Below are positions 1 to 11,783 of a stretch of 11,783 nucleotides of DNA, in pieces. This DNA is from a virus. Positions within the stretch are counted from its first letter, which is position 1; each line of letters opens with the position of its first letter. Made by a program: the position numbers and the translations under genes. A model generated the notes under the pieces. It ran no database searches. It saw only the letters and a list, made by a program, of their open reading frames with translations, and was not told the DNA's origin. Location: IMG/VR virus record IMGVR_UViG_3300022235_000070. The stretch is one strand, 5' to 3'.

Positions 1-119
1 GGCCGCCATATCGTTAATTACCAGGGCCAGCGCAAGGACGGCGACCCTGTACTTAATAGACTTCTGCAGGTGCAGCCTAACCCGTACATGACGGCCTACG
101 ACCTGCAATATAAGCTGGT
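1..119. repeat. Terminal overlap: nt 1-119 identical to nt 11665-11783 (circular closure or assembly overlap; unit length 11,664 bp)
   Basis: Base-by-base comparison of the first and last 119 nt shows identity throughout. The repeat lies inside one continuous reading frame (portal). Confidence 0.95.
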
Positions 120-1029
120 TGTTCACTACTACCAGCACAACACTTCTTTTGCCTTCCTGCAGAAGAACGAGCGGGGCGACCTAGAAGCAATATGGCCGCT
201 GAAGCCTTTAAGCATGGAGTTTGTAACAGACCCGACTGGGGAACTTTATTGCAGGTTCATATTCGCAGGCGGTAGGACAGTTATTCTGCCCTTCCGCGAT
301 GTGCTGATCCTGCGCAGACACTTTAACACCAATGACCTGCTGGGGGACACCAACACGGCCATTCTGCCGACCTTAGACCTGGCCCATACGCAGAGCGAAG
401 GCCTGCGGAACGCCATTAAGCAGGGCGGTACTGTTCGCGGCATATTGAAATATAACCAGGTTTTGAGCGATGAAAAGCTGCGGGAAAGCAAGGAAGCCTT
501 TATTCGTGATTACTTGACCGTGGCCAATGAGGGCGGTATTGCGGCCCTGGACGCGAAGGCCGACTATGTACCACTTGAGATGAAGCCCTATTCTATTGAC
601 GATAAGCAGCTGAAGGCCATTAAAGACAAGGTTTACAGTTACCTGGGTATTAGCGAGGCCATTGTAACCAGTAGCTATGACGAAAACGAATGGGCTGCCT
701 TTTATGAAAGCGTGTTGGAACCCATAGCCCTGCAATTAAGCCTGGAGCTAACCAGCAAGGTGTTTACACCGCGGGAGCAGGGTTTTGGGAACATGATTAT
801 TTACGAGAGCCAGCGGCTGCAGTACGCCAGCGCACAGAGCAAGGTAAACATCATCAAAGAGCTGCTGCCCTATGGCCTATTCACTATTAACGAGGCCAGG
901 GAAATTTTGAACCTGCCTGCGGTAGAAGGCGGCGACAAGCGGCTGCAGACCCTAAACGTTGTTAGTGCAGACCTAGCGGACAAGTATCAGATGGAAGGTG
1001 ATCTGGATGAAAGAAATTCGGATAGCTGA
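1..1029 (+). CDS. Portal protein, HK97 family: C-terminal 342 codons. The ORF continues from 11491..11664 across the circular junction (400 aa total).
   Basis: Frame 1 is open from nt 1 to TGA 1027-1029, and the same frame runs from TTG 11491 through the overlap. The joined translation (MSIFSRLFGR...GKLKGRHIVNYQG...QPNPYMTAYDL...YESQRLQYASAQ...) has the size and N-terminal pattern of HK97-type portals. It sits directly upstream of a prohead protease and an HK97 capsid gene. Track ORF 70..1029 is only the internal GTG-to-stop part. Confidence 0.85.
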   Translation, partial: GRHIVNYQGQRKDGDPVLNRLLQVQPNPYMTAYDLQYKLVVHYYQHNTSFAFLQKNERGDLEAIWPLKPLSMEFVTDPTGELYCRFIFAGGRTVILPFRDVLILRRHFNTNDLLGDTNTAILPTLDLAHTQSEGLRNAIKQGGTVRGILKYNQVLSDEKLRESKEAFIRDYLTVANEGGIAALDAKADYVPLEMKPYSIDDKQLKAIKDKVYSYLGISEAIVTSSYDENEWAAFYESVLEPIALQLSLELTSKVFTPREQGFGNMIIYESQRLQYASAQSKVNIIKELLPYGLFTINEAREILNLPAVEGGDKRLQTLNVVSADLADKYQMEGDLDERNSDS

Positions 1030-1594
1030 ATTAAGGGCTATTGGAGACCCGATTGATGATAACGCTTTAATTCTGGAGGGCAGGCCCTTAGTGTATGACC
1101 AGCCCACGGTAATTAAAGAGAAGTTTGGCAGCTTTACAGAAGTGATCCGCGCAGGTGCCCTGGACGGTGCCGACCTATCGGATACGCGGTTACTATACAA
1201 CCACGATTTAAGCAGGATTCCGCTTGCGCGGACACCCAAAACAATGCGGCTGAGCGTAGATCAGGCAGGCCTGCGCATGGTGGCATTGTTGCCTGATACA
1301 GAAGAGGGCCGCAGCGTGTATACGGCAGTAAAACGCGGCGACCTTTCAGGCATGAGCATTGCGTTCGTGGTGGCCGATGGCGGCAGCCATTACGACCCGC
1401 GGACGAACACCAGGACTATAACCAAGATCAAGAAGATCCTGGAGTGCAGCGTGGTTCCGTTCCCTGCATACCCTACGACTTCGGTAGAAGCTAGGGCAGA
1501 GATACAGGGGGCCTGGGACAAGCTGAACGACCCTGCAAGAAAAGCCCTTATTATCAGGGCTAACCGAATACGATTAAGGAGTGTTGACATATGA
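1007..1594 (+). CDS. Prohead (capsid maturation) protease, HK97 family (S78/U35)
   Basis: ATG 1007 is preceded by GGAAGGTGA; GTG 998 is an alternative start. The ORF overlaps the portal stop. It has the motifs LLYNHD (catalytic His context) and GMSIAF (Ser context). Its stop overlaps the capsid start (ATGA at 1591-1594). Confidence 0.85.
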   Translation: MKEIRIAELRAIGDPIDDNALILEGRPLVYDQPTVIKEKFGSFTEVIRAGALDGADLSDTRLLYNHDLSRIPLARTPKTMRLSVDQAGLRMVALLPDTEEGRSVYTAVKRGDLSGMSIAFVVADGGSHYDPRTNTRTITKIKKILECSVVPFPAYPTTSVEARAEIQGAWDKLNDPARKALIIRANRIRLRSVDI

Positions 1595-2808
1595 GATTCA
1601 AGACTGTTCAAGAGGCGTTTAACTTTTACCGCCATTTTAGCGTTGAGGACATAGAGAAACGGGCCGCTGCCATTATTGACGAAGTGAATTCTAACCCAGA
1701 GGCCAACATTGAGGCCCTGAACATTGAGCTGGAGGCCCTGGAGCAGGTAAAGCAAAACTGGGAGGACAAGACGGCTGAAAAGCGCAGCCAGTTTAACCCC
1801 ATTACTGGCATGAACTTCGATCAGCCCAGGTTCACTAATGACAACGTGTTTGCTAGTGCCGAATACAGGAGTGCGTTCTTCAAGACCCTGTTGGGCCAGA
1901 AGCTGATGGATCAGGAGCAGCTGGCCTGGAACAGGGCGATGGAATTGGCCGAGAAGCGCGCTAACCTGTTTAACGTGGTAAGCGATAGCGCAGCGGTGAT
2001 TCCTACGCAGACCCTGAACGAGATTGTAAGCAAGGCCAGGGACATGGGCGGCATTATTGCCGAAGCCAGACAGTTTAATGTTCCTGCCAGCTTGAAGGTT
2101 CCTATTGCTACTCCTATTGGAAGGGCAAGCAGGCACCAGGAAGGCCAGCCCGTGGAAACCCAAAAGGTGGGCCTGGCAAGCGTTACCTTCGCACCGCTGG
2201 AGCTGATCAAGGTTATTTCCATGAGCGCAGCCGTTCGGCATACGGCCATTGACGCGTTCGAGAAGTACCTTGTGGAGGAACTGGCCACTTGCGTATTAGA
2301 GCAGATCGCTTATGAGCTTGTGAATGGCCAAGGTTCCGAAAAAGGTGAAGGCCTGGGGGTGCTGGCAGGTGTAACCTGGACGACAGACAACAGCGTAAGC
2401 TATGAGGACGCTCCAGCTTATACCGACTTCGCCAAGATGATGGGCCTTCTGAAGCGCGGTTATGGGCGTAATGCTAAATGGGCCATGAACACTTCCACCT
2501 TGTATAACCAGGTTTACACCTTAACCGACCAGAACGATAGACCCATTTTCGTACCTGACCCAAGGAATGACGAAGTGGGCCGTATCCTGGGCCGCGAGGT
2601 TATCATTGATGATTACCTGGATGACGGAGTTGTGCTGCTGGGCGACTGGAAGTACATGGGCTGGAACCTGGCTAACGGCATTATGATTGAAGTTAGCAGG
2701 GAAAGCAGCTTCAAGAGCGGCCTAATTGATTACCGCGCATTGGCTATTGCCGACACTCAGGTTCTAGTGGCAGAGGCCTTCGCCAAACTGAGCGAAGCCG
2801 AGGGCTAG
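1591..2808 (+). CDS. Major capsid protein, HK97 fold, with N-terminal delta/scaffolding-like segment
   Basis: 405 aa with RBS AAGGAG at 1576-1581. The N-terminal ~100 aa look like coiled coil (EALNIELEALEQVKQNWEDKTAEKR). Typical HK97 capsid stretches follow (NGQGSEKGEGLGVLAG; LLGDWKYMGWNLANGIMIEVSRES). The position after the protease is canonical. Confidence 0.9.
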   Translation: MRFKTVQEAFNFYRHFSVEDIEKRAAAIIDEVNSNPEANIEALNIELEALEQVKQNWEDKTAEKRSQFNPITGMNFDQPRFTNDNVFASAEYRSAFFKTLLGQKLMDQEQLAWNRAMELAEKRANLFNVVSDSAAVIPTQTLNEIVSKARDMGGIIAEARQFNVPASLKVPIATPIGRASRHQEGQPVETQKVGLASVTFAPLELIKVISMSAAVRHTAIDAFEKYLVEELATCVLEQIAYELVNGQGSEKGEGLGVLAGVTWTTDNSVSYEDAPAYTDFAKMMGLLKRGYGRNAKWAMNTSTLYNQVYTLTDQNDRPIFVPDPRNDEVGRILGREVIIDDYLDDGVVLLGDWKYMGWNLANGIMIEVSRESSFKSGLIDYRALAIADTQVLVAEAFAKLSEAEG

Positions 2809-2905
2809 AGAGCCGCGGAACTGGAACCTGTTTTGTTGGAAGTGGGCTGCGGATTGCCAAGCAGTTTTGCGGCTTTTCTAGCAAGGTTCACTTCTTCTAG
2901 TAGCT

Positions 2906-2944
2906 GGGAAAGGGGAGCCGAATTGACTTCGGTTCCTCTTTCCC
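2906..2944 (+). promoter_or_regulatory. Strong plus-strand RNA stem-loop downstream of the capsid gene (16-bp stem, 7-nt loop, no U-tract)
   Basis: GGGAAAGGGGAGCCGA (2906-2921) pairs with TCGGTTCCTCTTTCCC (2929-2944). The two non-Watson-Crick positions are G-U in the + transcript but C-A on the minus strand, so the structure is strand-specific. It is followed by CCCAAAAAAAGGGG rather than a T-run. Confidence 0.5.
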
Positions 2945-2966
2945 CCCAAAAAAAGGGGTGATAAGC

Positions 2967-3263
2967 ATGATTCTAAGCCTTGAAGAAGCCAGAGAAGCAT
3001 TGAGAATAGACGGCGAAGATAACGATACGATCATTGTTCCGCTTGTGCTGGCTATTCCCAAGTACCTGGAGATAACGACAGGGAACAGCTGGATGAATGA
3101 GGACGACCATTGCACAAATGAGCTGGCAAAGGTGGCGGCCAAGTTTATCCTGCAGCTGTGGTATTACCCGCAGAGTGAGGACGCAGTAAGGATACAGCGC
3201 ACCATTGACAGCCTGCTTTTAACATTAGGCGCAGAAGCCAGGGGTATGAATGGATTACCGTGA
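2967..3263 (+). CDS. Head-tail connector / DNA-packaging protein, gp6-like (QLRG-type)
   Basis: ATG 2967 is preceded by AAAGGGGTG; the track start GTG 2958 is less likely. The N-terminus MILSLEEAREALRIDGEDNDTIIVPLV and the later AAKFILQLWYY stretch match the pattern of gp6-like connector proteins. It lies immediately after the capsid gene. Confidence 0.65.
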   Translation: MILSLEEAREALRIDGEDNDTIIVPLVLAIPKYLEITTGNSWMNEDDHCTNELAKVAAKFILQLWYYPQSEDAVRIQRTIDSLLLTLGAEARGMNGLP

Positions 3264-3555
3264 GTATGCTAAAGCCTTCTACGGCAGCACGGCCTGGATC
3301 AAGTGCAGAAATGGTTACATGCAAAGCAGGAACTATGTTTGCGAGTTATGCGGCGGTGTGGCCACGATATGCCACCACAAGGTTCCACTAACACCTGAAA
3401 CTATTAATAACCCTGAAATAGCTTTGAATTGGGATCTGCTGCAGGCCCTTTGCCACGAGTGCCACAACAAAATTCACTTCACCGCTTCGCCAACACCAGA
3501 CGGCTTGATATTTGACCCTGATGGAAACCTTGTGCAGCACACCCCCCAGGCCTGA
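3250..3555 (+). CDS. HNH endonuclease (packaging-associated type)
   Basis: 101 aa with CELCG...ICHHKVPL...N...LCHECHNKIH, i.e. paired CxxC plus the H-N-H signature. It lies directly upstream of the terminase genes, as in HK97-like cos phages. It overlaps the preceding stop by 14 nt. Confidence 0.85.
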   Translation: MDYREYAKAFYGSTAWIKCRNGYMQSRNYVCELCGGVATICHHKVPLTPETINNPEIALNWDLLQALCHECHNKIHFTASPTPDGLIFDPDGNLVQHTPQA

Positions 3556-3751
3556 GCAGGCGCGGGGGCCTTCCAGGGCGGGGCGGGCGGCACCTTTCTT
3601 TTCCTCCAAAGGGAAGATCATATCAGGCGAGGGTTTACATTGTAAATATTGTAAACATGGAGAAGCTGAAGAAGGAACAACATGGCAGAAGATAGGCCGG
3701 TTTAGCAGGGGAAAGGCAGATTTAACAATAGCGGGGGAGAGGTGAATAGAA
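3556..3751. other. HNH-terS intergenic region; candidate cos/packaging-site region
   Basis: A 196-nt gap sits exactly where cos lies in HNH-dependent cos phages. It contains a GC-rich run GGCGCGGGGGCCTTCCAGGGCGGGGCGGGCGGCACC (3559-3594) and the 25-nt box at 3633-3657. There is no convincing coding ORF: track ORF 3512..3745 lacks an RBS and is low-complexity. Confidence 0.35.
3633..3657. repeat. 25-nt box GTTTACATTGTAAATATTGTAAACA (copy 1 of 2; inverted arms GTTTACA/TGTAAAC)
   Basis: Identical at 24 of 25 positions to 11197-11221 (A at 3645 versus G at 11209). It has an internal direct repeat ATTGTAAA x2 and terminal 7-nt inverted arms. Confidence 0.85.
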
Positions 3752-4102
3752 GTGAGCAAAATTCCATATAAAGACCTGCCCAAGGAGTTAAAGCAGCTTA
3801 AAAAGGTGCTGAAGAATGTACCAAAAGACAGGCGACCCATAGCGGAAAACCTGTTTGATGAGCTTGCTTTTATGGATCAGACAATGCAGAAGCTAAGGGA
3901 ACAGGTGAACGCGGACGGGCCTATCAGCCTATTCAAGCAGGGCAAGCAGGAATTCCTGCGGGAGCACCCAGCATTAACGGCCTACAACAAAACCGTTCAA
4001 CGGTACAACCAGACCCTGAAGCAGCTTATTGACCTGCTGCCCAAAGCAGACGGCCAGGGGGACGCTGATCCGCTGCTGGAATTCATTAAAGGCGGCGAAT
4101 AG
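3752..4102 (+). CDS. Terminase small subunit, P27-like
   Basis: GTG 3752 is preceded by GGGGGAGAGGTGA. The product is 116 aa, basic and helical, with ...EHPALTAYNKTVQRYNQTLKQLIDLLPK resembling P27-family TerS. It lies between the HNH and large terminase genes. Confidence 0.6.
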   Translation: MSKIPYKDLPKELKQLKKVLKNVPKDRRPIAENLFDELAFMDQTMQKLREQVNADGPISLFKQGKQEFLREHPALTAYNKTVQRYNQTLKQLIDLLPKADGQGDADPLLEFIKGGE

Positions 4103-4103
4103 A

Positions 4104-5744
4104 TTGAACTATGTGCTGGAGTATTGGCAGGCCATAGAAACGGGGCAGGTAGTAGTTTCCCGAAGGGTGCGGCAGATATACGAACGACTGACACGGGAAA
4201 TAGAAAGCCCTGGCCGATACGTCTTTGACCCAGAGAAGGCCAGCAGGCCTATTGAATTCATTGAAAGGTTCTGCCGCCATAGCAAAGGAGAATGGGCGGG
4301 CCAGCCTGTGAAGCTGGAGCTGTGGCAAAAAGCCTTTATTTCGGCCCTGTTCGGCTTCGTGGACAGGGAAACAGGGCTGAGGCGGTTCCGTGAAGCCATG
4401 TTCTACTGCGGACGCAAGAACGCCAAAACTACGCTAATGAGCTGCCTAGCCTTATACATGTTGGTGGGCGATGGGGAAGCTGGCGCAGAAGTGTATTCCA
4501 TAGCCACGAAGTACGACCAGGCCAGGATACTTTTCGATGAGGCCCATAACATGGTACGGCAAAGCCCATACCTGTCTAAGCATGTTCGGAAGCGCAAAAC
4601 CGACCTTTACTTTGACGCAACCATGAGCCTATTCAGGCCGCTGGGCAAGAACAGCAATACCCTGGACGGCCTTAATGCCCATTGTGTGATTATAGACGAG
4701 CTACACAGTATTAGGGATAGGAACCTGTATGAGGTAATGAAGCAGTCCATGAGCGCAAGACGGCAGCCGCTTCTGATTATCATAACTACCGCTGGAACCG
4801 TTAGGGAAGGCGTGTTTGATGACATTTACAGCTATGCTACGCAAGTAGTGGACGGGACATTCGAGGATGACACTTTCCTGCCTGTCCTGTACGAACTGGA
4901 CAGCAGGGACGAATGGACAGACCCCAGCGCATGGCCCAAAGCTAACCCTGGCCTGGGGGTAATTAAGAAGCTGGACGACCTGCAGCAGAAGGTGGAAAGG
5001 GCCAAGAACAACCCCAGCGAGCAAAGCGGCGTATTAACCAAGGAATTCAATGTGCGGGAAACAACGGCGCGGGCATGGCTAACCTTCGAGCAGCTGAACA
5101 ATGAGGAAACCTTCGACCTGGAGGACTTCCGCGGCTTCTACGCCATAGGGGGTGCGGACTTGAGCCGCGTTTACGACCTAACCTGTGCCACTTTGCTGAT
5201 GGTAGACCCCAAGACTGAGAAGCGGTATGTTCACCAGATGTACTGGCTTCCAGAGGACGGCTTCATGGAGCGCGTGGAGCAGGATAAGGTTCCGTATGAC
5301 GTATGGCACAGCCGTGGCCTGCTGCGCTTGACCCCAGGCAACACAATAGACTACCGCTTTATCACGCGCTGGTTCTTGGAAATGATCGAGCAATACAGCA
5401 TAGTGCCATTATGGGTGTTTTACGATGCCTGGAGTGCGACCTTTTGGGTTCAGGACATGGAGGCCCAGGGCTTTAACATGGTTCCTGTGCGCCAGGGGGC
5501 CAAGACTTTGAGCATACCCATGCAGCAGCTGGGCGCAGACCTTACGGCAAAGAAGGTAAATTACGGGAACCACCCGATCCTAAAATGGTGTTTGGCCTGC
5601 ACGGAAGTGGTGCAGGATCGTAACCAGAACTGGCTGCCTGCTAAACCGAAGAATTCCAAGATGAAAATTGACGGCATGGCGAGCCTGCTAAACGCTTATG
5701 TTGGCTTGATGGCGAGATACCAGGAATACCTGGGCGCACTATAA
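4104..5744 (+). CDS. Terminase large subunit (Terminase_1-type ATPase/nuclease)
   Basis: The likely start is TTG 4104, one nt after the terS stop and preceded by AAAGGCGGCG; the track start at 4029 would overlap terS by 74 nt. It has Walker A-like CGRKNAKTT and Walker B HCVIIDELH. The N-terminus FDPEKASRPIEFIERFCRHSKGEWAGQPVKLELWQK is typical of this family. Confidence 0.9.
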   Translation: MNYVLEYWQAIETGQVVVSRRVRQIYERLTREIESPGRYVFDPEKASRPIEFIERFCRHSKGEWAGQPVKLELWQKAFISALFGFVDRETGLRRFREAMFYCGRKNAKTTLMSCLALYMLVGDGEAGAEVYSIATKYDQARILFDEAHNMVRQSPYLSKHVRKRKTDLYFDATMSLFRPLGKNSNTLDGLNAHCVIIDELHSIRDRNLYEVMKQSMSARRQPLLIIITTAGTVREGVFDDIYSYATQVVDGTFEDDTFLPVLYELDSRDEWTDPSAWPKANPGLGVIKKLDDLQQKVERAKNNPSEQSGVLTKEFNVRETTARAWLTFEQLNNEETFDLEDFRGFYAIGGADLSRVYDLTCATLLMVDPKTEKRYVHQMYWLPEDGFMERVEQDKVPYDVWHSRGLLRLTPGNTIDYRFITRWFLEMIEQYSIVPLWVFYDAWSATFWVQDMEAQGFNMVPVRQGAKTLSIPMQQLGADLTAKKVNYGNHPILKWCLACTEVVQDRNQNWLPAKPKNSKMKIDGMASLLNAYVGLMARYQEYLGAL

Positions 5745-6083: not shown

Positions 6084-6314
6084 ATGGATATGGAGCTTCC
6101 AGAAAAGCTGCAACAGCTTAATGATGACCTGGAGGAAGTGCTTTTGGAGTTTCAGGACAGCGTGAGACGGCAGGTTGTGTTGATGGGAACCAGGGCGGCC
6201 ACGGCCAGCGATTTCAACGAGCTAGGCAAGAACCTGGACAGCGTATTAGCGAGTTTCAAAGAGGCCCTTATTGACTATCTAAACGAGCTGGAATATGACA
6301 TAGGCAGGAATTAG
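6084..6314 (+). CDS. Hypothetical acidic helical protein (76 aa)
   Basis: RBS AGGAGGA is 6 nt upstream of ATG 6084. It is tightly packed after the head-closure gene. No recognisable motif. Confidence 0.6.
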   Translation: MDMELPEKLQQLNDDLEEVLLEFQDSVRRQVVLMGTRAATASDFNELGKNLDSVLASFKEALIDYLNELEYDIGRN

Positions 6315-6375: not shown

Positions 6376-6573
6376 ATGGAGGATGAAAGACAAAACTGGG
6401 CAAAACATGGGCTGCCTGAAGGGTGGACAAGGGCCACCTTTATTGTTCGCCAGGACTTGCTGGAGAAGCTGAAAGATCATGCCTGGACGGAGCGAATGAC
6501 CCTCAAAGAGGCCGTGGAGCAGATGATGGCCGATTATTTGGCAGACAAAAGCCCGCTGCCGCGCAGAAAGTGA
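6376..6573 (+). CDS. Ribbon-helix-helix (CopG/Arc/ParG-like) DNA-binding protein
   Basis: RBS AAGGGGGGA is upstream. The product is 65 aa. RATFIVRQDLLEKLKDHAWTERMTLKEAVEQMMADYL fits a beta-strand plus two helices, the RHH layout. Confidence 0.6.
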   Translation: MEDERQNWAKHGLPEGWTRATFIVRQDLLEKLKDHAWTERMTLKEAVEQMMADYLADKSPLPRRK

Positions 6574-6602
6574 TTTTTTGCGGACGTTGGCTGAAAAACG
6601 AA

Positions 6603-6700
6603 GCCCTAGAATGGCCCAGGACGGGCGAAAACGCATGGGGTAAGGGTTTTATATGCCTGTTTAAAATGGCCCTTAGAGCGCACCAGGCGGCCCAGGAGCA
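6603..6700. repeat. Two tandem partial copies (A1, A2) of a repeat whose third copy (B) follows the primase-polymerase stop
   Basis: ATGGCCCAGGACGGGCG at 6611-6627 is identical to 10779-10795, and similarity continues to about 6648 versus about 10822. A2 (GCCCTTAGAGCGCACCAGGCGGCCCAGGA, 6668-6696) parallels GCCCTCTGACGCACCAGGATGGCCCAGGA at 10762-10789. Confidence 0.85.
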
Positions 6701-6714
6701 AAGAAGGGGTTTAG

Positions 6715-6972
6715 CTGGGCATTTGCTACGCCGCGAGCTGCACTGAGGATGAGTTCAGTTCAACTGAAGTCATCGAGCAAACCCCGCGCGCGCGCGAGCT
6801 GCACCAGGTGTCCGATTTCGGACACGTCATCGTGCACCGAGGCAAACCCCACGCGCAGGGGTGAGACCGGGGTGTGGAAATATTTCCACACCCTGCTTCT
6901 GCGCCTTTGTCGCTTAGGGAAATGTTTCCCGAAGCGTTTTTAGGGCAAACCCCATGAGCGCGAGAGCTACAG
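6715..6972 (+). repeat. Array of four degenerate ~29-nt direct repeats separated by palindrome-containing spacers (32, 36 and 74 nt)
   Basis: Repeats: R1 6715-6743 (only its 3' 12 nt CGCGAGCTGCAC match R2), R2 6776-6804, R3 6841-6869, R4 6944-6972. GCAAACCCC is exact in R2, R3 and R4. R2 versus R4 is 22/29 and R2 versus R3 is 18/29. Spacers hold a 27-nt near-palindrome (6748-6774), GTGTCCG-ATTT-CGGACAC (6808-6825), a perfect 24-nt palindrome GGGTGTGGAAATATTTCCACACCC (6870-6893), and the hairpin at 6911-6936. Confidence 0.8.
6911..6941 (+). terminator. Candidate intrinsic terminator inside the repeat block
   Basis: CGCTTAGGGAAA-TG-TTTCCCGAAGCG forms a 12-bp stem with one A/G mismatch, followed by TTTTT (6937-6941). 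Confidence 0.5.
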
Positions 6973-7025
6973 TTTACAGAATACGGTGGCAGTTTTCATA
7001 ATGTTAGTTATGCGAAGTAACAGCA

Positions 7026-7047
7026 AGCCCTCTAGCTGGGCTTTTTT
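7026..7047 (+). terminator. Candidate intrinsic terminator closing the long rightward (late) transcription unit
   Basis: AGCCC-TCTAGCT-GGGCT is followed by TTTTT(T). A second small GCG-TTG-CGC hairpin plus T6 follows at about 7048-7070. The next promoter starts about 55 nt downstream. Confidence 0.5.
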
Positions 7048-7106
7048 GCGTTGCGCTTTTTTATTCATTCAGACGCACAAATAAAGAATATTTATTAGGG
7101 GTGTTT

Positions 7107-7149
7107 ATGTGAAAATGGGGTTGACTATATGAAAATGTTACGCTATACT
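7107..7149 (+). promoter_or_regulatory. Sigma-70/SigA-type promoter (TTGACT-17-TATACT) flanked by two 11-nt direct repeats
   Basis: -35 TTGACT at 7121-7126, a 17-nt spacer, -10 TATACT at 7144-7149. ATGTGAAAATG (7107-7117) and ATATGAAAATG (7127-7137) are 10/11 identical and 20 nt apart, bracketing the -35. Confidence 0.7.
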
Positions 7150-7168
7150 ATAGATGGAGGTGCAAGGA

Positions 7169-7357
7169 ATGGAAAAATTACTAACCACCCAAGAGGTAGC
7201 AGACTATTTGGGACTAACACGCAGAACCATTTACACCTATATCGAAAGCAAAACCTTGCCAGCAGTTAAGATCGGCAAAGAATGGAGGATAAAAAAGAGC
7301 GAGCTGGAGGCGTTCATTAACCGCGGCAGCGGTGAGATAAAAGACAAGGAGGATTAG
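7169..7357 (+). CDS. Excisionase/MerR-superfamily HTH DNA-binding protein (AlpA/Xis-like, 62 aa)
   Basis: ATG 7169 is preceded by GGAGGTG; track start 7154 is upstream of that RBS. LLTTQEVADYLGLTRRTIYTYIESKTLPAVKIGKEWRIKKSELEAFI is the classic excisionase-family HTH pattern. Confidence 0.8.
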   Translation: MEKLLTTQEVADYLGLTRRTIYTYIESKTLPAVKIGKEWRIKKSELEAFINRGSGEIKDKED

Positions 7358-7361: not shown

Positions 7362-7598
7362 ATGACAAAATGGGAAGTTGTATCAGTGAGGCCCATACCA
7401 GGAAGTAATGGCCGTGGGTTTGAGGTGGAGGTTCGGGAAACGATGAAGGAAACGATTAAGGAAGGATGGATGGGCGAACTTATTGAGATTGCGAGCAGGC
7501 TGCCGAATGTTGAGTTGAAAAGATTGTTGTGGTTCGCCAGAGCCTTCGAGAAACAAGTAAAAGAGGGCGCACCAGCGGGAACCAGTGAAGCCCTCTAA
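7362..7598 (+). CDS. Hypothetical protein (78 aa)
   Basis: RBS AAGGAGGA is upstream of ATG 7362. It is tightly spaced after the HTH gene. No recognisable motif. Confidence 0.55.
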   Translation: MTKWEVVSVRPIPGSNGRGFEVEVRETMKETIKEGWMGELIEIASRLPNVELKRLLWFARAFEKQVKEGAPAGTSEAL

Positions 7599-7675: not shown

Positions 7676-7885
7676 ATGTACAGAGAGCATGTAAACGAGC
7701 GCATACAAGAGCGAGCCAACGAGCTAATAGCCTTGATGAAGAAAGAAGTGGAAGTTGCCGAAAGTGTTCACGGCCAGGTTCCCATTGATGATCTTGATTA
7801 TTGGAGCCTATTGGCCTATAAGTGCGCCATTATGTTATGGAAAAAGCGCAGGGGAGGGATACCTTGGACAAGTGTCCAAGGATAG
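7676..7885 (+). CDS. Hypothetical protein (69 aa)
   Basis: RBS ACGGAGGAA is upstream of ATG 7676. The N-terminal half looks helical. The 3' end overlaps the TGTCYA half-site cluster. Confidence 0.5.
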   Translation: MYREHVNERIQERANELIALMKKEVEVAESVHGQVPIDDLDYWSLLAYKCAIMLWKKRRGGIPWTSVQG

Positions 7886-7971
7886 TGTCCAGGGGTAATT
7901 GTCTAGGGTAGACACGATGACCAGGGGTGCCGTACAGGGTAGACAGGAAGGGTGGACAATGTGCAGGGGTA
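7862..7971. promoter_or_regulatory. Dense cluster of TGTCYA/TRGACA half-sites and CAGGGGT repeats (operator array or iterons)
   Basis: Half-sites: TGGACA 7865, TGTCCA 7873, TGTCCA 7886, TGTCTA 7900, TAGACA 7909, TAGACA 7940, TGGACA 7953. There is a 20-nt palindrome CCTTGGACA-AG-TGTCCAAGG (7862-7881) and an inverted repeat TGTCTA-GGG-TAGACA (7900-7914). AGGGTAGACA occurs twice (7906, 7937). CCAGGGGT occurs at 7889 and 7921, and GCAGGGGT at 7963. Confidence 0.7.
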
Positions 7972-8341
7972 TTTGACAGTTAGAGAAGCTGCAGAACAGC
8001 TAGGTATTAGTGAAAAAACAGTACGCAGACGCATTAAGAACGGTTCCCTTCCTGCCGAGCTGAAGCAAGGGGACTATGGACAACAATACTTTATTCCTGC
8101 CGATGCTATCGAAACAGCCCAAGCCATTACAGACGTTGTGGAAGTTAAGCGTGTACACGATGTCCAGGCCTTGTCTATGGCCGTTGTCCAGGCCCTGGAC
8201 GAAAGAAACAAGACCCTGGAGAGTGAGCTTGCAACCATTCGTGAGGAATTGGCAGCCACAAGGGAGGCCTTGCAGAAGCTGCAGGAAACATTAACCCAAC
8301 AACAGCGACCAAGGGCGTGGTGGAGGTTCTGGGAGAAATAA
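7961..8341 (+). CDS. MerR/excisionase-type HTH protein with C-terminal coiled coil (126 aa)
   Basis: GTG 7961 is preceded by GGAAGGGTGG; GTG 7952 and TTG 7973 are alternatives. LTVREAAEQLGISEKTVRRRIKNGSLPA is an HTH. The C-terminus LESELATIREELAATREALQKLQETL has a heptad-like pattern, followed by an aromatic/basic tail RPRAWWRFWEK. Confidence 0.7.
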   Translation: MQGYLTVREAAEQLGISEKTVRRRIKNGSLPAELKQGDYGQQYFIPADAIETAQAITDVVEVKRVHDVQALSMAVVQALDERNKTLESELATIREELAATREALQKLQETLTQQQRPRAWWRFWEK

Positions 8342-8402: not shown

Positions 8403-8432
8403 TTGACAAGCCCATAGTTGGGGGTTTATACT
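8403..8432 (+). promoter_or_regulatory. Sigma-70/SigA-type promoter (TTGACA-18-TATACT)
   Basis: -35 TTGACA at 8403-8408 and -10 TATACT at 8427-8432, with a T-rich tract upstream. It sits ahead of the MerR-like gene and the primase-polymerase. Confidence 0.65.
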
Positions 8433-8491
8433 AATGAAAAAGGCTTTCGCTTACAACAGCGCAAGAAGTGTGCCCTTCTGGAGGTGATTGT

Positions 8492-9037
8492 GTGCAACAA
8501 GCTGCGGAAACGTTGTTTGCCGATAATGTGAACTATAACAGCCAGCTGATGAAGCGCAGAGCTGCTAAACGTACAAAGGTAGGAGAGCACAAAGTGGGGC
8601 CTGAAGAAGCGGTGCAAAGGTTAAGTGAGCTGGGAATTGAAATAACTGGACGAACCCTGCAAAACTGGGCATACCGCTATAAGGTGATAACCAAGCCCAA
8701 GACAGGAAGCTATGGAAAGGGCCGCGGACGTTGGGCACATTACAGCGAAGTAGCAATTAAAGAAGCGGTTACGGTACACATTTTGCGAGAAAAGCACCGC
8801 ATGACCATAAAAGAAATAGCTGAGGCCAGGAAGAACCCTGACACCGACCACGGCATTATATGGGCCTTCCACTATGCGCTGTTTGAACTAAGCGGCGACC
8901 TGGAGAATTCAATGAACCCTTCCTTCGACTTCTTGAAGCAGTACAGCGACCACCCAGCGGTTAGGCGGTATTTCAAGCGCAGCATGGAGAAGCTGCAGGA
9001 AATGTTCCCGGGGGCAATAATGGGGACGTATAGATAG
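8492..9037 (+). CDS. MerR-family HTH domain protein (181 aa)
   Basis: GTG 8492 lies 5 nt after GGAGGTG (8480-8486); track start 8468 lies upstream of that RBS. LGIEITGRTLQNWAYRYKVITKPKT...GRGRWAHYSEVAIKEAVTVHILREKHRMTIKEIAEA follows the MerR wHTH layout (RTLxxW...Y...L...I.EI). Confidence 0.6.
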   Translation: MQQAAETLFADNVNYNSQLMKRRAAKRTKVGEHKVGPEEAVQRLSELGIEITGRTLQNWAYRYKVITKPKTGSYGKGRGRWAHYSEVAIKEAVTVHILREKHRMTIKEIAEARKNPDTDHGIIWAFHYALFELSGDLENSMNPSFDFLKQYSDHPAVRRYFKRSMEKLQEMFPGAIMGTYR

Positions 9038-9333: not shown

Positions 9334-10761
9334 ATGGCAAAACTAACGGCAGTAAGACAAGTACCAAGCGAAACATTGAAGAAGGCCACGGAATACATAA
9401 CTCGCGGATGGGCCTTAATACCCTTTTCGCCAATAAGCAAGAACCCGTTATTTGACCTGCTGCCACTTTCAGAGGACGGCCAAGGCGTAAGCTGGAAGCC
9501 ACTGGCCAAGAACAAGGCCACAGTAGAAGTTGTTCAAAGGTGGCTAGAAGCATGGCCTAATATGAATTTGGGCATTATATGCGGCCAGGCAAGCGGGATC
9601 GTTATCATTGATACTGATAAACCTTTAAGGTGGCCGATGGAATACCTCACCCCAACGGTTAAGACTAGGCGAGGCTATCACTATTACCTAAAAACCGACC
9701 GGCCTTATAAGAGCGTGGTAATTAAAAGCAAAACGGGCGAAGCATACGGAGAACTTAGAGCCGAAGGAAACGTTACAATAATTCCACCTTCAACACACGT
9801 TGAAACAGGCCAGCCCTATGAATGGGTGGATGGTTTAGGAATAGATGATGTTCCTATGCAACCGATCACCAAAAACCTTATAAAAGCCTTTGTTAAGCTG
9901 AACCCTCACCTTGAAGAAATAACCCTGGAAGAAGATCGAAAACGGATTGAAGCAAGAAAGAATATTCTTCCTTGCTTCAATGAACCCAGGCCCTATAATT
10001 CTGAGCAAGACGCGGTGGTTCGTTCCAGTATTCCCTACATGGAATACCTTCAGGATCCGCGCGTGGTAATTAGCATAATGCAAGAAATGGGTTGTGATGT
10101 GAAGGCATTGGGCCAGGCGTTTAGTTGCCCTATTCATGGCCCAGATGAACACCCCAGCGCAGCGTTATATGTTCCTCATGACGAAGGTTTTATTTCCATG
10201 ATGGACTTTCACAATAGAAAACTAGTGCCTATTCCTGATCTTTACGCGGCCCACGTTAAAGGCAAATATGAACCGTTAGGCACAGGTGAAAGGGCCTTGT
10301 GGTGGATTCGCTGTTTGGTGGATCACGGCTACATTGATTACCCCAGAATATTAGCACGACCGTTACCCGAAGAAGCACCTGAAGCGGCTAAAGAGCTTTA
10401 CAAGGGTTTTGTCATGCTGCTGGGAATTCGCAAGCTGTACAATGCAGATCAGACAGCAACACCATTTTCCTGGCGGTTCGCGGCTGGATGGTGTGGCGGT
10501 TTAACTAACTACAAGATCAAACAAGGCATGGCCTGGTTATTAAAGCACGGCTTCATTCACAAGACGGGAACCACTTCAAGCAGAACGGCCCTATTTGCTT
10601 TACAGCCTGCCGAGGAAACTGCTGCTGTGGCCACGACAGAGGCGGGAAAAACGCAGGTGTACAATTTTGTACACCACGCAAATCAGGATCACCCCGCGCA
10701 TGCGGGAACAGACATCCGGGAAAATTTTCCCGGAAGTGAGCTTGTCCCTTTTCCAGAATAG
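9334..10761 (+). CDS. Primase-polymerase (AEP superfamily, Prim-Pol N-terminal domain) with uncharacterised C-terminal half; no helicase motifs seen
   Basis: RBS GAGGGGGAAG is upstream of ATG 9334. The motifs are RGWALIPFSP, NLGIICGQASGIVIIDTDKP (DxD), TRRGYHYYL (sGxH) and VTIIPPSTHVETGQPYEW. No GxxxxGK[ST] motif occurs anywhere in the 475 aa. Confidence 0.85.
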   Translation: MAKLTAVRQVPSETLKKATEYITRGWALIPFSPISKNPLFDLLPLSEDGQGVSWKPLAKNKATVEVVQRWLEAWPNMNLGIICGQASGIVIIDTDKPLRWPMEYLTPTVKTRRGYHYYLKTDRPYKSVVIKSKTGEAYGELRAEGNVTIIPPSTHVETGQPYEWVDGLGIDDVPMQPITKNLIKAFVKLNPHLEEITLEEDRKRIEARKNILPCFNEPRPYNSEQDAVVRSSIPYMEYLQDPRVVISIMQEMGCDVKALGQAFSCPIHGPDEHPSAALYVPHDEGFISMMDFHNRKLVPIPDLYAAHVKGKYEPLGTGERALWWIRCLVDHGYIDYPRILARPLPEEAPEAAKELYKGFVMLLGIRKLYNADQTATPFSWRFAAGWCGGLTNYKIKQGMAWLLKHGFIHKTGTTSSRTALFALQPAEETAAVATTEAGKTQVYNFVHHANQDHPAHAGTDIRENFPGSELVPFPE

Positions 10762-10822
10762 CCCTCTGACGCACCAGGATGGCCCAGGACGGGCGGAAAT
10801 ACACAGGGGGTAGTTAGGGGTT
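10762..10822. repeat. Copy B of the GCCCT...CGCACCAGG...ATGGCCCAGGACGGGCG repeat
   Basis: It starts immediately after the primase-polymerase stop. The 17-nt exact match (10779-10795) to 6611-6627 is flanked by imperfect similarity on both sides. Confidence 0.85.
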
Positions 10823-10909: not shown

Positions 10910-11032
10910 ATGAGTAGAATTTGCACGATGTGCAAGAAGAACTGTAAGCAGGTTATAGGGCAAGTGGTGAGCTGCCTAAAGTTTGAAAAGAAGGAGCGAG
11001 CGAGTAATGAAAAAGACAAAACCAGGGGGTGA
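10910..11032 (+). CDS. Possible 40-aa Cys-rich micro-protein (MSRICTMCKKNCKQVIGQVVSCLKF...)
   Basis: It is below the track cutoff. ATG 10910 overlaps the TAA of a 10-codon ORF (10878-10910, MPKTIQKGWP) that has a strong GGAGGTG RBS. It contains CxxC-x3-C-x9-C. Support is only ORF plus coupling geometry. Confidence 0.3.
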   Translation: MSRICTMCKKNCKQVIGQVVSCLKFEKKERASNEKDKTRG

Positions 11033-11195
11033 GCTGAACATGGCCGAACAGAAGGCCAAAGACATTGTTTGTGCTTGCGATAAGTGCGGCCTTGCTAATT
11101 ATCCATTCAAGACAGAGCTGGAGAACCTGGGGGTAATTAAGGGCTTTTATCGGTGTAAGCGGTGCGGCTGGAGTTATCTATTTTTTTGGCGGTAA
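11007..11195 (+). CDS. Small zinc-ribbon protein (62 aa)
   Basis: ATG 11007 lies 9 nt after AAGGAG (10991-10996); track start TTG 10983 is less likely. CACDKCG ... CKRCG gives two CxxC knuckles about 30 residues apart. Confidence 0.55.
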   Translation: MKKTKPGGELNMAEQKAKDIVCACDKCGLANYPFKTELENLGVIKGFYRCKRCGWSYLFFWR

Positions 11196-11196: not shown

Positions 11197-11221
11197 GTTT
11201 ACATTGTAGATATTGTAAACA
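11197..11221. repeat. 25-nt box GTTTACATTGTAGATATTGTAAACA (copy 2 of 2)
   Basis: 24/25 identical to 3633-3657. It begins 2 nt after the preceding stop and overlaps the -35 of the promoter below. A 10-nt palindrome AACAATTGTT follows at 11223-11232. Confidence 0.85.
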
Positions 11222-11241
11222 GAACAATTGTTTGGTATAAT
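11213..11241 (+). promoter_or_regulatory. Promoter with extended -10 (TTGTAA-17-TGgTATAAT) for the csd-portal-head operon
   Basis: -35 TTGTAA at 11213-11218 and -10 TATAAT at 11236-11241, with TG at 11233-11234. It lies 30 nt upstream of the CSD gene start. Confidence 0.65.
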
Positions 11242-11270
11242 TAAACTAGGGTGCAAAGGAGCTGGTGAAA

Positions 11271-11489
11271 ATGACACTAGAGCAAAAGAAGGGCGTTGTG
11301 AAAACGCAGTTTCGTGATCGTGGATATGGGTTCATTGTGGGCGAAGATGGCGAAGACTACTACTTCAACAAAAGCGGGTTCAGGGGCAGCTGGAAAGAGC
11401 TAACCGAAGGGGATCGAGTTACCTTTGAGCTGGTTCCAGACGGCGAAAAAATGAAGGCGGTAAACGTTAAGCTGTTGGGCGGTGAATAG
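11271..11489 (+). CDS. Cold-shock-domain (CspA-like OB-fold) protein (72 aa)
   Basis: ATG 11271 lies 9 nt after AAGGAG (11256-11261). GVVKTQFRDRGYGFIVGEDGEDYYFNKSGF...LTEGDRVTFELVPDGEKMKAVNVKLL parallels the CspA layout (G.VKWF...GFGFI...D.FVH.S......L.EGQ.V.F....G..G..A.NV). Confidence 0.75.
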   Translation: MTLEQKKGVVKTQFRDRGYGFIVGEDGEDYYFNKSGFRGSWKELTEGDRVTFELVPDGEKMKAVNVKLLGGE

Positions 11490-11490
11490 G

Positions 11491-11783
11491 TTGAGCATAT
11501 TCAGCAGACTGTTTGGACGAACGAAGCAGCCAGAGGGAGCTGCCAGGGCCGAAGTATTGAGCGGCAGCCCAGCGTTCTTTACACCATTTAGCGGGAACGC
11601 ATGCGAAAACGATATTTTTAGGGCCGCGGTGGACGCGATAGCCAGGAACGCAGGCAAGCTAAAGGGCCGCCATATCGTTAATTACCAGGGCCAGCGCAAG
11701 GACGGCGACCCTGTACTTAATAGACTTCTGCAGGTGCAGCCTAACCCGTACATGACGGCCTACGACCTGCAATATAAGCTGGT
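11491..11783 (+). CDS. Portal protein N-terminal part (continues at nt 120 after removing the duplicated 119 nt)
   Basis: TTG 11491 lies 5 nt after GGCGGTGA and 2 nt after the CSD stop. The frame is open to the window end and is in frame with nt 1..1029. The track does not list it because it has no stop inside the window. Confidence 0.75.
   Translation, partial: MSIFSRLFGRTKQPEGAARAEVLSGSPAFFTPFSGNACENDIFRAAVDAIARNAGKLKGRHIVNYQGQRKDGDPVLNRLLQVQPNPYMTAYDLQYKL
11665..11783. repeat. Terminal overlap, second copy (identical to 1-119)
   Basis: See the first feature. Confidence 0.95.

Follow-up and report, generated by a model that had tools for sequence, protein, structure and literature searches.

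The window analysed here, a stretch of 11,783 nucleotides taken at its full length, begins and ends with the same 119 nt (bases 1–119 exactly match 11665–11783) and therefore closes into a circle of 11,664 bp. Independent contigs (L002 and L006–L010) run unbroken from window positions 11473–11664 into positions 1–2782 and thus cross the junction, which is not peculiar to the window's own assembly. Contig L006 (13,173 nt, from another sample) makes more than one turn round the same gene circle, and L012 carries TerL-Hc1-o65-HTH-PrimPol in direct linkage. The closure proposed in the first-pass annotation was confirmed by the exact match and the junction-crossing contigs, as was the restoration of a single portal ORF, although its length is 403 rather than 400 codons. 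All 18 supported genes lie on the plus strand, as had been claimed. Concatemers, or virion DNA joined at its cos ends, could also yield a circle; circularity is uninformative on the carried state.

Table 1. Genes and other features of the window.
Position	Strand	Feature	Evidence or remark
1..119	.	Terminal overlap	Identical to 11665-11783; circle closes inside portal gene
1..1029	+	Portal, remainder	Whole ORF 11482 -> 1029, 403 aa; PF04860 E=6e-52
998..1594	+	Prohead serine protease (S78)	PF04586 E=7e-32
1591..2808	+	HK97-fold major capsid protein, N-terminal delta-like region	PF05065 E=6e-30; phrog_10 E=6e-48
2958..3263	+	Head-tail adaptor Ad1 (gp6-like connector)	phrog_40 E=2e-9; TIGR01560 above its cut-off
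3250..3555	+	HNH endonuclease of packaging machine	phrog_144/119 E~1e-16; PF01844 weak
3633..3657	.	25-nt near-palindrome GTTTACATTGTAaATATTGTAAACA, copy 1	HNH–TerS interval; candidate operator, or site associated with TerS/cos
3752..4102	+	TerS, P27/Terminase_4-like (weak)	phrog_1066 E=2e-33; PF05119 E=3e-4; TIGR01558 E=9e-4
4104..5744	+	TerL (ATPase + nuclease)	PF03354 E=1e-38; PF20441 E=3e-33
5758..6081	+	Head closure/completion protein Hc1, tail-docking face	PF05521 E=8e-11; phrog_25 E=5e-15
6084..6314	+	o76, small helical protein, function unknown	ORF
6376..6573	+	o65, putative centromere-binding, RHH-like by pattern	Homolog of small protein whose gene directly follows parA in relatives
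6575..7120	.	Largest non-coding stretch	Candidate ori, cos or centromere-like region
6611..6627	+	17-nt conserved motif ATGGCCCAGGACGGGCG, copy 1	38 nt past o65 stop
7121..7149	+	Sigma-70-like promoter TTGACT-17-TATACT	Ahead of regulatory/replication genes
7154..7357	+	HTH_17 (AlpA/excisionase-family) DNA-binding protein, 67 aa	PF12728 E=4e-20; phrog_66
7362..7598	+	o78, function unknown	ORF
7676..7885	+	o69, function unknown	Conserved in L006 (94%) and L021 (43%)
7952..8341	+	HTH_17 protein with coiled-coil tail, 129 aa	PF12728 E=3e-11
8403..8432	+	Sigma-70-like promoter TTGACA-18-TATACT, 11/12	Best such match in window; ahead of o189
8468..9037	+	o189, ORFan all-alpha protein	AF2 model
9334..10761	+	Primase-polymerase (AEP) replication protein (PrimPol), 475 aa	PF09250 E=2e-21; phrog_1156 E=7e-18
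10779..10795	+	17-nt motif ATGGCCCAGGACGGGCG, copy 2	18 nt past PrimPol stop
10983..11195	+	Zn70, small CxxC...CxxC zinc-ribbon-like accessory protein	Weak phrog_1315
11197..11241	+	25-nt near-palindrome, copy 2, and promoter TTGTAA-17-TGgTATAAT	Palindrome overlaps -35 box
11265..11489	+	Cold-shock-domain (CSD) protein, opens structural gene row	PF00313 E=3e-11
11482..11783	+	Portal, 5' part	Continues at base 120 past overlap

Genes were assigned by Pfam, PHROGs and NCBIfam profile searches, which recovered all the functions listed earlier (portal, protease, capsid, connector, head closure, HNH, TerS, TerL, PrimPol and CSD). Judged by these matches, the window carries a full HK97-type head-assembly set together with cos-type packaging genes (HNH, TerS and TerL), Ad1 and Hc1. 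Against deposited phages and plasmids, the capsid reaches at most 31% identity. The identity of TerS is tentative, being based on weak profile matches and on its position ahead of TerL, a slot conserved in all relatives. TerL has 546 aa, as in relatives, if read from the TTG start directly past the TerS stop. Hc1 is only 47% identical in L006, although the capsid of that contig is 96% identical. The CSD protein also gave sub-threshold matches to CspE and the retron Se72 effector. The promoter at the end of the window heads the row CSD-portal-protease-capsid-Ad1-HNH, and the arms of the palindrome, 63–68 nt 5' of the CSD start, are kept in 10 relatives, while its centre varies.

In the replication and regulatory part, PrimPol has no helicase domain and no PDB sequence match. 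Of the four small DNA-binding proteins proposed previously, the two HTH_17 proteins were borne out by profiles, while the RHH-like and zinc-ribbon assignments of o65 and Zn70 reflect sequence patterns. The o65 protein lacks the N-terminal tail of about 45 aa of its homologs in relatives, and ParA is absent from the window; Pfam, a PDB sequence search and AF2 were all uninformative for o65. Homologs of o76 come after Hc1 in five relatives (L027, L116, L034, L085 and L102), and neither o76 nor o78 had a family match in profile searches. The largest non-coding stretch contains three GCAAACCCC...AGCTgCA repeats (at 6777, 6842 and 6945), an exact 12-mer present twice (6732 and 6793), a perfect 24-bp palindrome (6870–6893), a hairpin (6748–6774) and a terminator (7025–7043). 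The ORFs inside it had no supporting family match, the single match to WhiB being sub-threshold.

Tail, lysis, integrase and ParA genes were sought in the window with Pfam, PHROGs and NCBIfam profiles, by tblastn with recombinases of the family and by a hydrophobicity scan, and none was found. The tblastn searches with the relatives' tyrosine integrases, large serine integrases, short tyrosine recombinases and ParA returned nothing at E<0.1, and no family match was obtained for the large minus-strand and alternative-frame ORFs. No transmembrane-like segment was predicted in the products of coding-strand genes, profile searches revealed no P4 marker genes, and the window contains no tRNA and no Rfam match; neither a resolvase, nor a toxin–antitoxin pair, nor a divergently transcribed repressor was found in it. 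The statement of the first-pass annotation that tail, lysis and recombinase genes are missing therefore holds, all these searches being empty. The profile check of the ORFs that it had proposed likewise gave no such family. For o189, the one sizeable protein with no assigned function, which has homologs in only 3 clusters, all at least 87% identical, AF2 produced an all-alpha model with nine helices (pLDDT 70) and no PDB fold match at E<=0.001. This protein is probably regulatory; nothing in the helical model points to a recombinase, a tail component or a lysis function.

About 1,945 capsid homologs were found, and for about a quarter of the best 120 the longest contig is 10.6–14.8 kb. An eight-gene block is kept in nearly all loci of at least 9 kb; by this shared content and its unusual order, the window belongs to a large Bacillota family, apparently undescribed, which switches between a chromosomal-island and a plasmid-like circular form. 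Among the sampled members, a tyrosine or large serine integrase is present in all 32 loci with chromosomal context, and homologous integrase-bearing islands occur in Clostridium, Bacillus, Cohnella and others. In the Clostridium botulinum island L019, int-XRE-HTH_17-rep is followed by the same eight-gene block, and no tail genes were found there. Exact terminal overlaps in 12 contigs yield circles of 11,664–14,160 bp, none with a full-length integrase; two of them come from cultured isolates, Bacillus ectoiniformans DSM 28970 (L027) and Clostridium sp. K13 (L084).

Eight of the 12 circles encode ParA, a short tyrosine recombinase or both, and two closer relatives have the recombinase alone or neither. 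In several members (L027, L062, L162 and others), parA and the small tyrosine recombinase lie within the head module. ParA, confirmed by Pfam, is found in integrase-free members, with the one exception of L078, and is encoded directly upstream of the o65 homolog. The non-core ORFs of 20 integrase-free relatives encode helicases, primases, regulators and nucleases, and their top 25 families include one IS21 transposase (rve) and none for tails, lysis or site-specific recombination. A scan of 185,579 species-representative genomes revealed no relative with more than 58% capsid identity, integrated or not. No candidate helper phage was found, and Hc1 homologs are present only on contigs of up to 11 kb. 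By gene content, the window is the most reduced form seen, with no ParA, no recombinase and PrimPol only.

Taken together, we consider it likely (probability about 0.68) that the window represents a whole phage-satellite genome from an uncultured Bacillota host, capsid-forming, devoid of integration machinery and most likely persisting as an extrachromosomal circle. The earlier reading, a cf-PICI-type head and packaging logic on a non-integrating, PrimPol-replicating circular backbone, is supported by the occurrence of the same block both in integrase-bearing Bacillota islands such as L019 and in the 12 integrase-free circles. The circularity and the lack of an integrase stand; we infer the episomal state from the absence of the integrase and by analogy with relatives. 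Unlike its ParA-bearing relatives, however, the window encodes nothing recognisable for partition or multimer resolution. The usual plasmid-stability functions are unrecognisable, ParA and the short recombinase being absent and the N-terminal tail of o65 lost, which speaks against episomal carriage; the failure to find a candidate helper likewise counts against the satellite reading.

Replication would start with PrimPol, probably in the repeat-rich stretch at 6575–7120, and use the helicase and polymerase of the host. The strong promoter of the structural genes has its -35 box inside the conserved palindromic candidate operator, so that these genes would stay off until repression is relieved, probably by a signal linked to a helper phage. 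Capsid, protease and portal could then form small proheads, probably T=4 and sized for about 12 kb, into which HNH, TerS and TerL would cut and package unit-length cos genomes. The tail-less head, finished by Ad1 and Hc1, would be docked onto tails of the helper phage, on which the element would presumably depend for lysis as well. Inside a newly infected cell, the injected DNA would recircularise and be carried as a plasmid-like replicon, probably depending on copy number in view of the lack of an active partition system.

Alternatively, the window could represent a 'virulent' or hit-and-run satellite that lacks a stable carried state and occurs only as DNA in virions and as a circle replicating in helper-co-infected cells, as published for the integrase-less MiniFlayer of Streptomyces (PMC10690885). 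The absence of an integrase, ParA, resolvase, toxin–antitoxin pair and divergently transcribed repressor, the loss of ParA and truncation of its partner relative to plasmid-like relatives, and the cataloguing of many close relatives as viral contigs agree with this. However, MiniFlayer compensates by means of a short tail and fibre of its own, which fasten it to the helper, and has no replication genes, whereas the window has no tail or fibre gene but its own PrimPol and promoter region. Moreover, the conserved operator at the structural promoter implies a silent state, and a tail-less element with no carried state would need simultaneous co-infection, which nothing in the window would ensure; we therefore regard such a lifestyle as unlikely.

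Less probable still is an integrative island that borrows a recombinase in trans, either a helper integrase or host Xer, the circle being its excised, replicating or packaged state and the HTH_17 pair acting as directionality factors. Elements exploiting host Xer recombinases are known, HTH_17 belongs to the excisionase/AlpA family, and integrated relatives are common. Nevertheless, all 32 integrated family members have their own integrase, and HTH_17 is found in integrase-bearing islands too, beside the XRE repressor in the position of an AlpA-like regulator. The genome scan described above gave no close integrated relative, and both conserved repeated motifs occur twice per circle in direct orientation, which would make an att or dif-like role self-destructive. 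Misassembly of the circle, or its derivation, as a fragment or defective remnant, from a larger tailed phage with tail, lysis and lysogeny genes elsewhere, is very improbable and by now largely refuted: an overlap of 119 nt is of the k-mer-sized kind that repeats can also yield, and the related contig L004 exits the circle into IS21/IS256 sequence, but independent contigs of other samples span the junction with the entire gene order kept (L006 over more than one turn), L012 joins TerL to PrimPol directly, 11 more family circles of 11.7–14.2 kb have the same content, no tail module was seen beside Hc1 in about 150 related loci (mapped gene by gene for only some), and the departure of L004 is due to transposase genes that interrupt portal, not to phage genes.

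Among known satellites, P4 is a genome of about 11.6 kb with its own primase-type replicase, an integrase, cos packaging into T=4 heads and a multicopy plasmid state; it has no capsid, portal, protease or terminase and remodels P2 heads with Sid/Psu. The preferred reading of the window, a non-integrating capsid-forming satellite, shares with P4 the size of about 11.6 kb and the primase-type replicase and, as proposed, cos packaging into T=4 heads and carriage as a plasmid, and differs in lacking an integrase and in having its own capsid, portal, protease and terminases. Persistence as a plasmid is possible for P4 (PMC10690885). Like the window, MiniFlayer and MulchRoom of Streptomyces have capsid, portal, terminase and adaptor genes of their own, and MiniFlayer is likewise integrase-less; their low-GC genomes, matched to a virulent helper, have direct terminal repeats and no replication genes, and MiniFlayer has a tail fibre and adsorption module (PMC10690885). 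The window differs from them in its PrimPol, its HNH/cos-type packaging genes and the absence of any tail component.

The heads of cf-PICIs are T=4, hold 15.5 kb and, being tail-less, pirate tails (10.1101/2025.02.11.637232); in a SatelliteFinder survey, all 177 Type A cfPICI were found in Proteobacteria, and Bacillaceae members are rare (PMC10085698). The window falls in the same 10–18 kb size class, combines a replication gene of the primase type with a regulator of the AlpA family, lacks lysis genes and a tail module, and has homologous integrase-bearing islands. Unlike cf-PICIs, it lacks site-specific recombinases, integrases included, and is not a chromosomal island; its capsid stays at or below 31% identity to any deposited phage.

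The first-pass annotation was aware of no described satellite class with this combination, a claim now superseded by the cf-PISPs described in 2025–26, episomal capsid-forming satellite-plasmids of Vibrio, which are circular, tail-less and integrase-less, carry parA/repA and a small tyrosine recombinase in the head module, and were found by their authors only in Vibrio (PMC13230959). Like them, the window is a small circular contig with no tail genes or integrase and with cf-PICI-type capsid, portal, protease, adaptor, closure, HNH and terminase genes; the relatives L027, L062 and L162 match them in the parA and recombinase noted above, and both are proposed to pass vertically as replicons and to spread horizontally in self-made heads fitted with pirated tails. 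Unlike cf-PISPs, the window has Bacillota-type relatives, by analogy with which its plasmid carriage is proposed, is smaller (11.66 versus 15.8 kb), has the gene order portal...Ad1-HNH-TerS-TerL-Hc1, possesses a helicase-less PrimPol, and lacks parA, a repA-type initiator and the small recombinase. The alternation between islands and plasmid-like circles has so far been published only for Vibrio, and the window is the Bacillota counterpart of cf-PISP.

The first 119 bases of the window are identical to its last 119, which gives a circle of 11,664 bp with a G+C content of 50.2%. Closure joins the two halves of the portal gene into one open reading frame; the first-pass annotation was right about the closed 11.66-kb replicon and the restored single frame, but the latter has 403 codons rather than 400. 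The junction (11473–11664 continuing into 1–2782) is traversed without a break in contigs L002 and L006–L010, which come from other samples. Contig L006 (13,173 nt) comprises more than one turn of the same gene circle, and its two ends share about 750 nt at 87% identity, the pattern to be expected from an assembler that had circled a molecule common to two strains, while contig L012 directly links the genes for TerL, Hc1, o65, HTH and PrimPol. The independent contigs across the junction, together with L006 and L012, therefore establish that the circular or concatemeric topology of the window is real. In contig L004, from a close relative, IS21-family genes (IstA/IstB) together with an IS256-type transposase break the portal gene at about position 11558 of the window; the contig is either chimeric or carries a copy inactivated by IS elements.

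The circle carries 18 genes covering 84% of its length, and all 18 lie on the plus strand, as had been noted previously. Searches with Pfam, PHROGs and NCBIfam profiles assigned 12 of them, namely an eight-gene block for head formation and packaging, an AEP primase-polymerase (PrimPol) with no helicase domain, two HTH_17 proteins of the AlpA/excisionase family, and a cold-shock-domain (CSD) protein (see the table). Six proteins were left without a family: the short o76, o78, o69 and Zn70 (69–78 aa), o65 (65 aa), and o189. The latter is an ORFan whose only relatives are at least 87% identical, and its AlphaFold (AF2) model is all-alpha with a moderate pLDDT of 70; since Foldseek found no match to this model in the PDB with E ≤ 0.001, o189 was rejected as a carrier of one of the missing functions. 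The residue pattern of o65 suggests an RHH-like protein, but this was not accepted as established, as no Pfam or PDB matches were found and the single-sequence AF2 model contains helices only and says nothing about a dimeric fold.

No tail, lysis or recombinase family was matched on either strand when all plus-strand ORFs were compared with Pfam and PHROGs, and large minus-strand and alternative-frame ORFs with Pfam; no genes for a holin or endolysin, or for a tail tube, tape measure, baseplate or fibre, were found in the window. A tblastn search of the window with ten family proteins (tyrosine and serine integrases, short recombinases and ParA) gave only E values above 0.1. Hidden recombinase, tail or lysis genes were rejected on the basis of these profile and tblastn results. 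A hydrophobicity scan detected no transmembrane-like segment in any coding-strand gene product, and the holin candidates it produced were discarded, being antisense ORFs with no supported gene among them. Tail and lysis families are likewise absent from the top 25 families matched by non-core ORFs of 20 related elements. Neither tRNA genes nor Rfam matches were found in the window, and the search for defence cargo with PADLOC and NCBIfam gave only sub-threshold matches of the CSD protein. The circle, the gene content and these absences therefore confirm, small details aside, the first-pass annotation of an element devoid of tail, lysis and integrase genes.

The non-coding sequence contains two copies of a 25-nt near-palindrome, GTTTACATTGTA-N-ATATTGTAAACA. 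One copy shares bases with the –35 box of a promoter close to consensus (TTGTAA-17-TGgTATAAT) that heads the CSD–portal–protease–capsid–Ad1–HNH row, and the other is located between HNH and TerS. In ten relatives the arms are kept 63–68 nt before the CSD start, while the centre varies; conserved arms with a variable centre typically mark an operator bound by a protein, which suggests a candidate operator shared by the structural and packaging genes. A dif-like Xer site was rejected in view of the two direct copies per circle, the –35 overlap and the operator-like variable centre. Promoter-like sites precede HTH67 and o189, a terminator ends the late row, and an intergenic gap, in which a perfect 24-bp palindrome accompanies iteron-like repeats, could be an origin, cos or centromere-like region. 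A 17-nt motif, ATGGCCCAGGACGGGCG, forms part of an imperfect repeat of 41 nt. Its two copies, in direct orientation, follow closely on o65 and on PrimPol and are kept at the same two places in related contigs (L006, L012, L023, L097 / L002, L007, L009, L010, L095). Its copies divide the circle into a replication and regulation half and a structural half.

Features of the window and of related elements, with coordinates where available
Feature	Element	Position (nt)	Support or remark
Portal	window		PF04860
S78 prohead protease	window		profile-supported
HK97-fold capsid	window		profile-supported
Head-tail adaptor Ad1	window		phrog_40, TIGR01560
HNH	window		profile-supported
Small terminase subunit TerS, P27/Terminase_4-like	window		weak profile matches, but phrog_1066 at E=2e-33 and conserved position
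Large terminase subunit TerL, ATPase and nuclease	window		profile-supported
Head closure protein Hc1	window		PF05521
PrimPol	window		PF09250
Two HTH_17 proteins	window		PF12728
CSD protein	window		profile-supported
o65	window	6376–6573	N-terminal tail missing
o65 homologs with N-terminal tail	L132; L027; others	10883–11197; 11812–12135	ParA-linked
Hc1/o76 exchange	window vs L006	5750–6341 vs 11246–11635	putative cassette
Near-palindrome, copy between HNH and TerS	window	3633–3657	candidate operator
Near-palindrome, copy at promoter	window	11197–11221	candidate operator
Promoter-like site before HTH67	window	7121	
Promoter-like site before o189	window	8403	
Terminator	window	7025–7043	
Repeat-bearing gap	window	6575–7120	candidate origin, cos or centromere-like region
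17-nt motif	window	6611–6627; 10779–10795	direct orientation
Insertion at PrimPol 3' end	L006	3469–4209	
Accessory cassette	L006	4386–5446	at the place of Zn70
Portal broken by IS genes	L004	1–4826	
HK97-gp10-like protein	L048	7183–7836	upstream of portal
Sigma-70-like factors and Card1-type nuclease	L019	15153–17764	after Hc1
Short tyrosine recombinase	L027; L084; L019; L021; about 30 others	6388–6960; 6038–6613; 11668–12210; 10612–11166	

For the capsid protein, about 1,945 homologs were counted, and identity to it among the top 120 is 52–98%; for about a quarter of these 120, the longest contig measures 10.6–14.8 kb. Others reside in genomes of Bacillus, Clostridium, Cohnella, Priestia and Virgibacillus. 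The best capsid match among INPHARED phages and PLSDB plasmids reached no more than 31% identity, no relative with more than 58% capsid identity was present among 185,579 species-representative genomes, and exact-protein look-ups for further context returned short contigs only. Scans with the capsid alignment retrieved 70 genome loci and 80 metagenome loci, and the eight-gene block is found in nearly all loci of at least 9 kb. All identifiable hosts belong to the Bacillota, apart from a few MAGs binned otherwise: members at 46–50% capsid identity occur in MAGs labelled Campylobacter (L066, L067, L070–L072) and Bacteroidaceae (L051), several with a 421–422-aa integrase and one adjoining a threonyl-tRNA synthetase gene, which reflects either mis-binning or a wider host range.

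The Clostridium botulinum locus L019 is a classical island, in which a tyrosine integrase, an XRE repressor, an HTH_17 protein and a 586-aa protein with no Pfam match are followed by portal, protease, capsid, connector, HNH, small terminase-like protein, TerL and Hc1, with sigma factors and a Card1 nuclease 3' of the latter; it contains no tail genes. Its block shares the unusual order of the window, with Ad1 before HNH–TerS–TerL and Hc1 after TerL. Cargo differs among members, and includes sigma-70-like factors and the Card1-type nuclease in L019 and PBECR-family nuclease domains in some circles of the L084/L130 group; these could be defence or regulatory payloads. An additional HK97-gp10-like protein, for the neck or for tail completion, is encoded upstream of the portal in some integrated relatives, and therefore the set of head-tail joining proteins varies across the family.

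Exact terminal overlaps allow twelve contigs, including the window, to be closed into circles of 11,664–14,160 bp. Two of these come from cultured isolates, Bacillus ectoiniformans DSM 28970 (L027, 14,160 bp) and Clostridium sp. K13 (L084, 12,576 bp), in whose assemblies each forms a contig of its own. Tyrosine recombinases and large serine recombinases were sought with iterated profiles, the serine class being confirmed by the Pfam domains Resolvase, Recombinase and Zn_ribbon_recom. A full-length integrase was detected in all loci with wide chromosomal context (32 of 32) and in none of the 12 circular contigs. In the chromosomal loci the integrase is mostly at the left edge, next to the repressor in those mapped. 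Many circles instead carry a ParA gene (AAA_31/CbiA/ParA) directly upstream of the o65 homolog, followed by a 360–500-aa protein with no family match and a primase–DnaB-type helicase fusion; ParA (L027, L062, L116, L132, L162) is seen, with one exception, in integrase-free members. On an average-linkage dendrogram of capsid identities, the integrase-bearing and integrase-free groups adjoin each other at a similar distance from the window.

Many members also encode, between Ad1 and TerS, a short tyrosine recombinase of 180–198 aa consisting of the catalytic domain only (PF00589). It is present in both integrase-bearing islands and integrase-free circles, including 8 of the 12 circles, in 7 of which it lies within the head module. 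Since it accompanies a full-length integrase in L019, L044 and L113, it is not the integrase; multimer resolution is one possible role.

The window belongs to a clade, together with L006, L021 and L023, in which ParA is absent. In this clade o65 is reduced to its conserved C-terminal domain, while ParA-linked homologs keep an N-terminal tail of about 45 residues with a GRPR motif, a pattern consistent with loss of partition and retention of a putative DNA-binding function. The window and L023 (11,666 bp) also lack the short recombinase and are the smallest and most reduced members. Between the window and L006, capsid, protease and portal are 94–96% identical and PrimPol 99%, yet identity in Hc1 falls to 47% and o76 is replaced; the tail-facing connector thus appears to have been exchanged as a cassette, which fits a role of Hc1 in setting compatibility with helper tails. 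The CSD genes are 30% identical and the accessory region from PrimPol to CSD is swapped as well, so that the differences look like cassette exchange affecting the tail-docking face and an accessory hotspot. L006 also has an insertion of about 740 bp at the 3' end of PrimPol, leading to a 534-aa protein with a different C-terminus, and, where the window has Zn70, an accessory cassette with an XRE-type HTH and a minus-strand lipoprotein-like ORF.

Beyond the gene set, topology and family context observed for the window, a life cycle can be proposed from established knowledge of HK97-type assembly, cos packaging with HNH and P27-type TerS, and capsid-forming PICIs (cf-PICIs). Replication would be primed by PrimPol and the head genes kept under operator control; small heads, probably T=4, would receive unit-length genomes by cos packaging, and the tail-less heads, finished by Ad1 and Hc1, would dock onto tails of a helper that also supplies lysis. 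In the cf-PICI EcCIEDL933, 15.5 kb is packaged in a 47.5-nm T=4 head, and the use of helper tails by tail-less cf-PICI heads is known as "tail piracy" (10.1101/2025.02.11.637232). No candidate helper phage was found, the Hc1 homologs being on small contigs only.

Taken together, the data could point to a lineage of capsid-forming satellites that is widespread in Bacillota and has not yet been described, and in which an integrase–repressor module has repeatedly given way to a plasmid module (composed of ParA, its small partner protein and either a primase/helicase or an initiator); we assign this reading a probability of about 0.45. The window would then be a still more minimal form, stripped of the partition and recombinase genes as well: it would persist as a multicopy circle replicated by PrimPol, in which the conserved operator keeps the head genes silent until the arrival of a helper, and Hc1 cassette exchange would retarget satellites to different helper tails. 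A hit-and-run, "virulent" satellite would agree with the lack of stability genes, but seems unlikely, since the window has its own replicase, a putatively operator-controlled structural promoter and no co-infection device. Integration in trans is somewhat less plausible still and without support: the integrated relatives all carry their own integrase, and an integrated close relative was not found. An assembly artefact or a fragment of a larger phage is highly improbable, being effectively refuted by the independent contigs and the eleven sister circles.

According to published criteria (methods of 10.1101/2025.02.11.637232; PMC10085698), cf-PICIs are about 10–18 kb in size, a range that includes the window, and possess a head and packaging set, all eight genes of which were recognised here by Pfam, PHROGs or NCBIfam (TerS weakly, and by position). 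They have neither lysis genes nor a complete tail module, as in the window, and their replication module and AlpA-type regulator correspond to PrimPol and the two HTH_17 proteins. However, cf-PICIs are chromosomal islands with att sites and an integrase, whereas the window lacks an integrase and assembles as a circle. Judged from its genes, the window would resemble cf-PICIs in every respect save the integrase and, possibly, chromosomal residence. Other hallmarks of cf-PICIs are that a helper phage induces them, that their capsids are small (T=4) and that they use helper tails. It differs from a complete HK97-like tailed phage, whose tail and lysis genes were not found.

The 2023 SatelliteFinder survey listed integrases among the core genes of all phage satellites (PMC10085698), and a 2025 review presented only one plasmid satellite, of an inovirus, as demonstrated, adding that there may be more that are still unknown (PMC12282955). 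The view of the first-pass annotation that such a combination had not been described is now dated, because a plasmid-borne capsid-forming satellite, cf-PISP, was reported in 2025–26, in Vibrio only. This episomal 15.8-kb circle of Vibrio crassostreae lacks tail genes and an integrase, has parA and repA together with a small tyrosine recombinase located in the head module, and was found by its authors only in Vibrio (PMC13230959). Plasmid carriage in cultured strains and a capsid placed inside the Vibrio/gammaproteobacterial cf-PICI clade also characterise cf-PISP. By description, it is the closest known kind to the window. No report of satellite-plasmids in Bacillota was found in the searchable literature; the family around the window suggests that digesters, guts and soil commonly harbour Bacillota elements with this lifestyle, which adjoin integrated cousins on the capsid dendrogram, and it offers a natural system for studying how satellites switch between chromosome and plasmid. 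Given this suggested lifestyle, part of the many 10–15-kb metagenomic circles classified as "viral" or "unclassified plasmid" could be tail-pirating satellites, and the idea can be tested in the cultured carriers B. ectoiniformans DSM 28970 and Clostridium sp. K13. The window matches cf-PISP, at the assembly level, as a small extrachromosomal circle with neither tail genes nor integrase, but in place of parA it has only the N-terminally truncated homolog of a ParA-adjacent protein, its replicase is PrimPol rather than RepA, and it lacks the small tyrosine recombinase that many of its relatives have. While the relatives closely mirror the description of cf-PISP in a different phylum, the window, their most stripped-down version, is devoid of the plasmid-maintenance genes by which cf-PISP is defined, prompting the question of how it can persist, and its family context is new.
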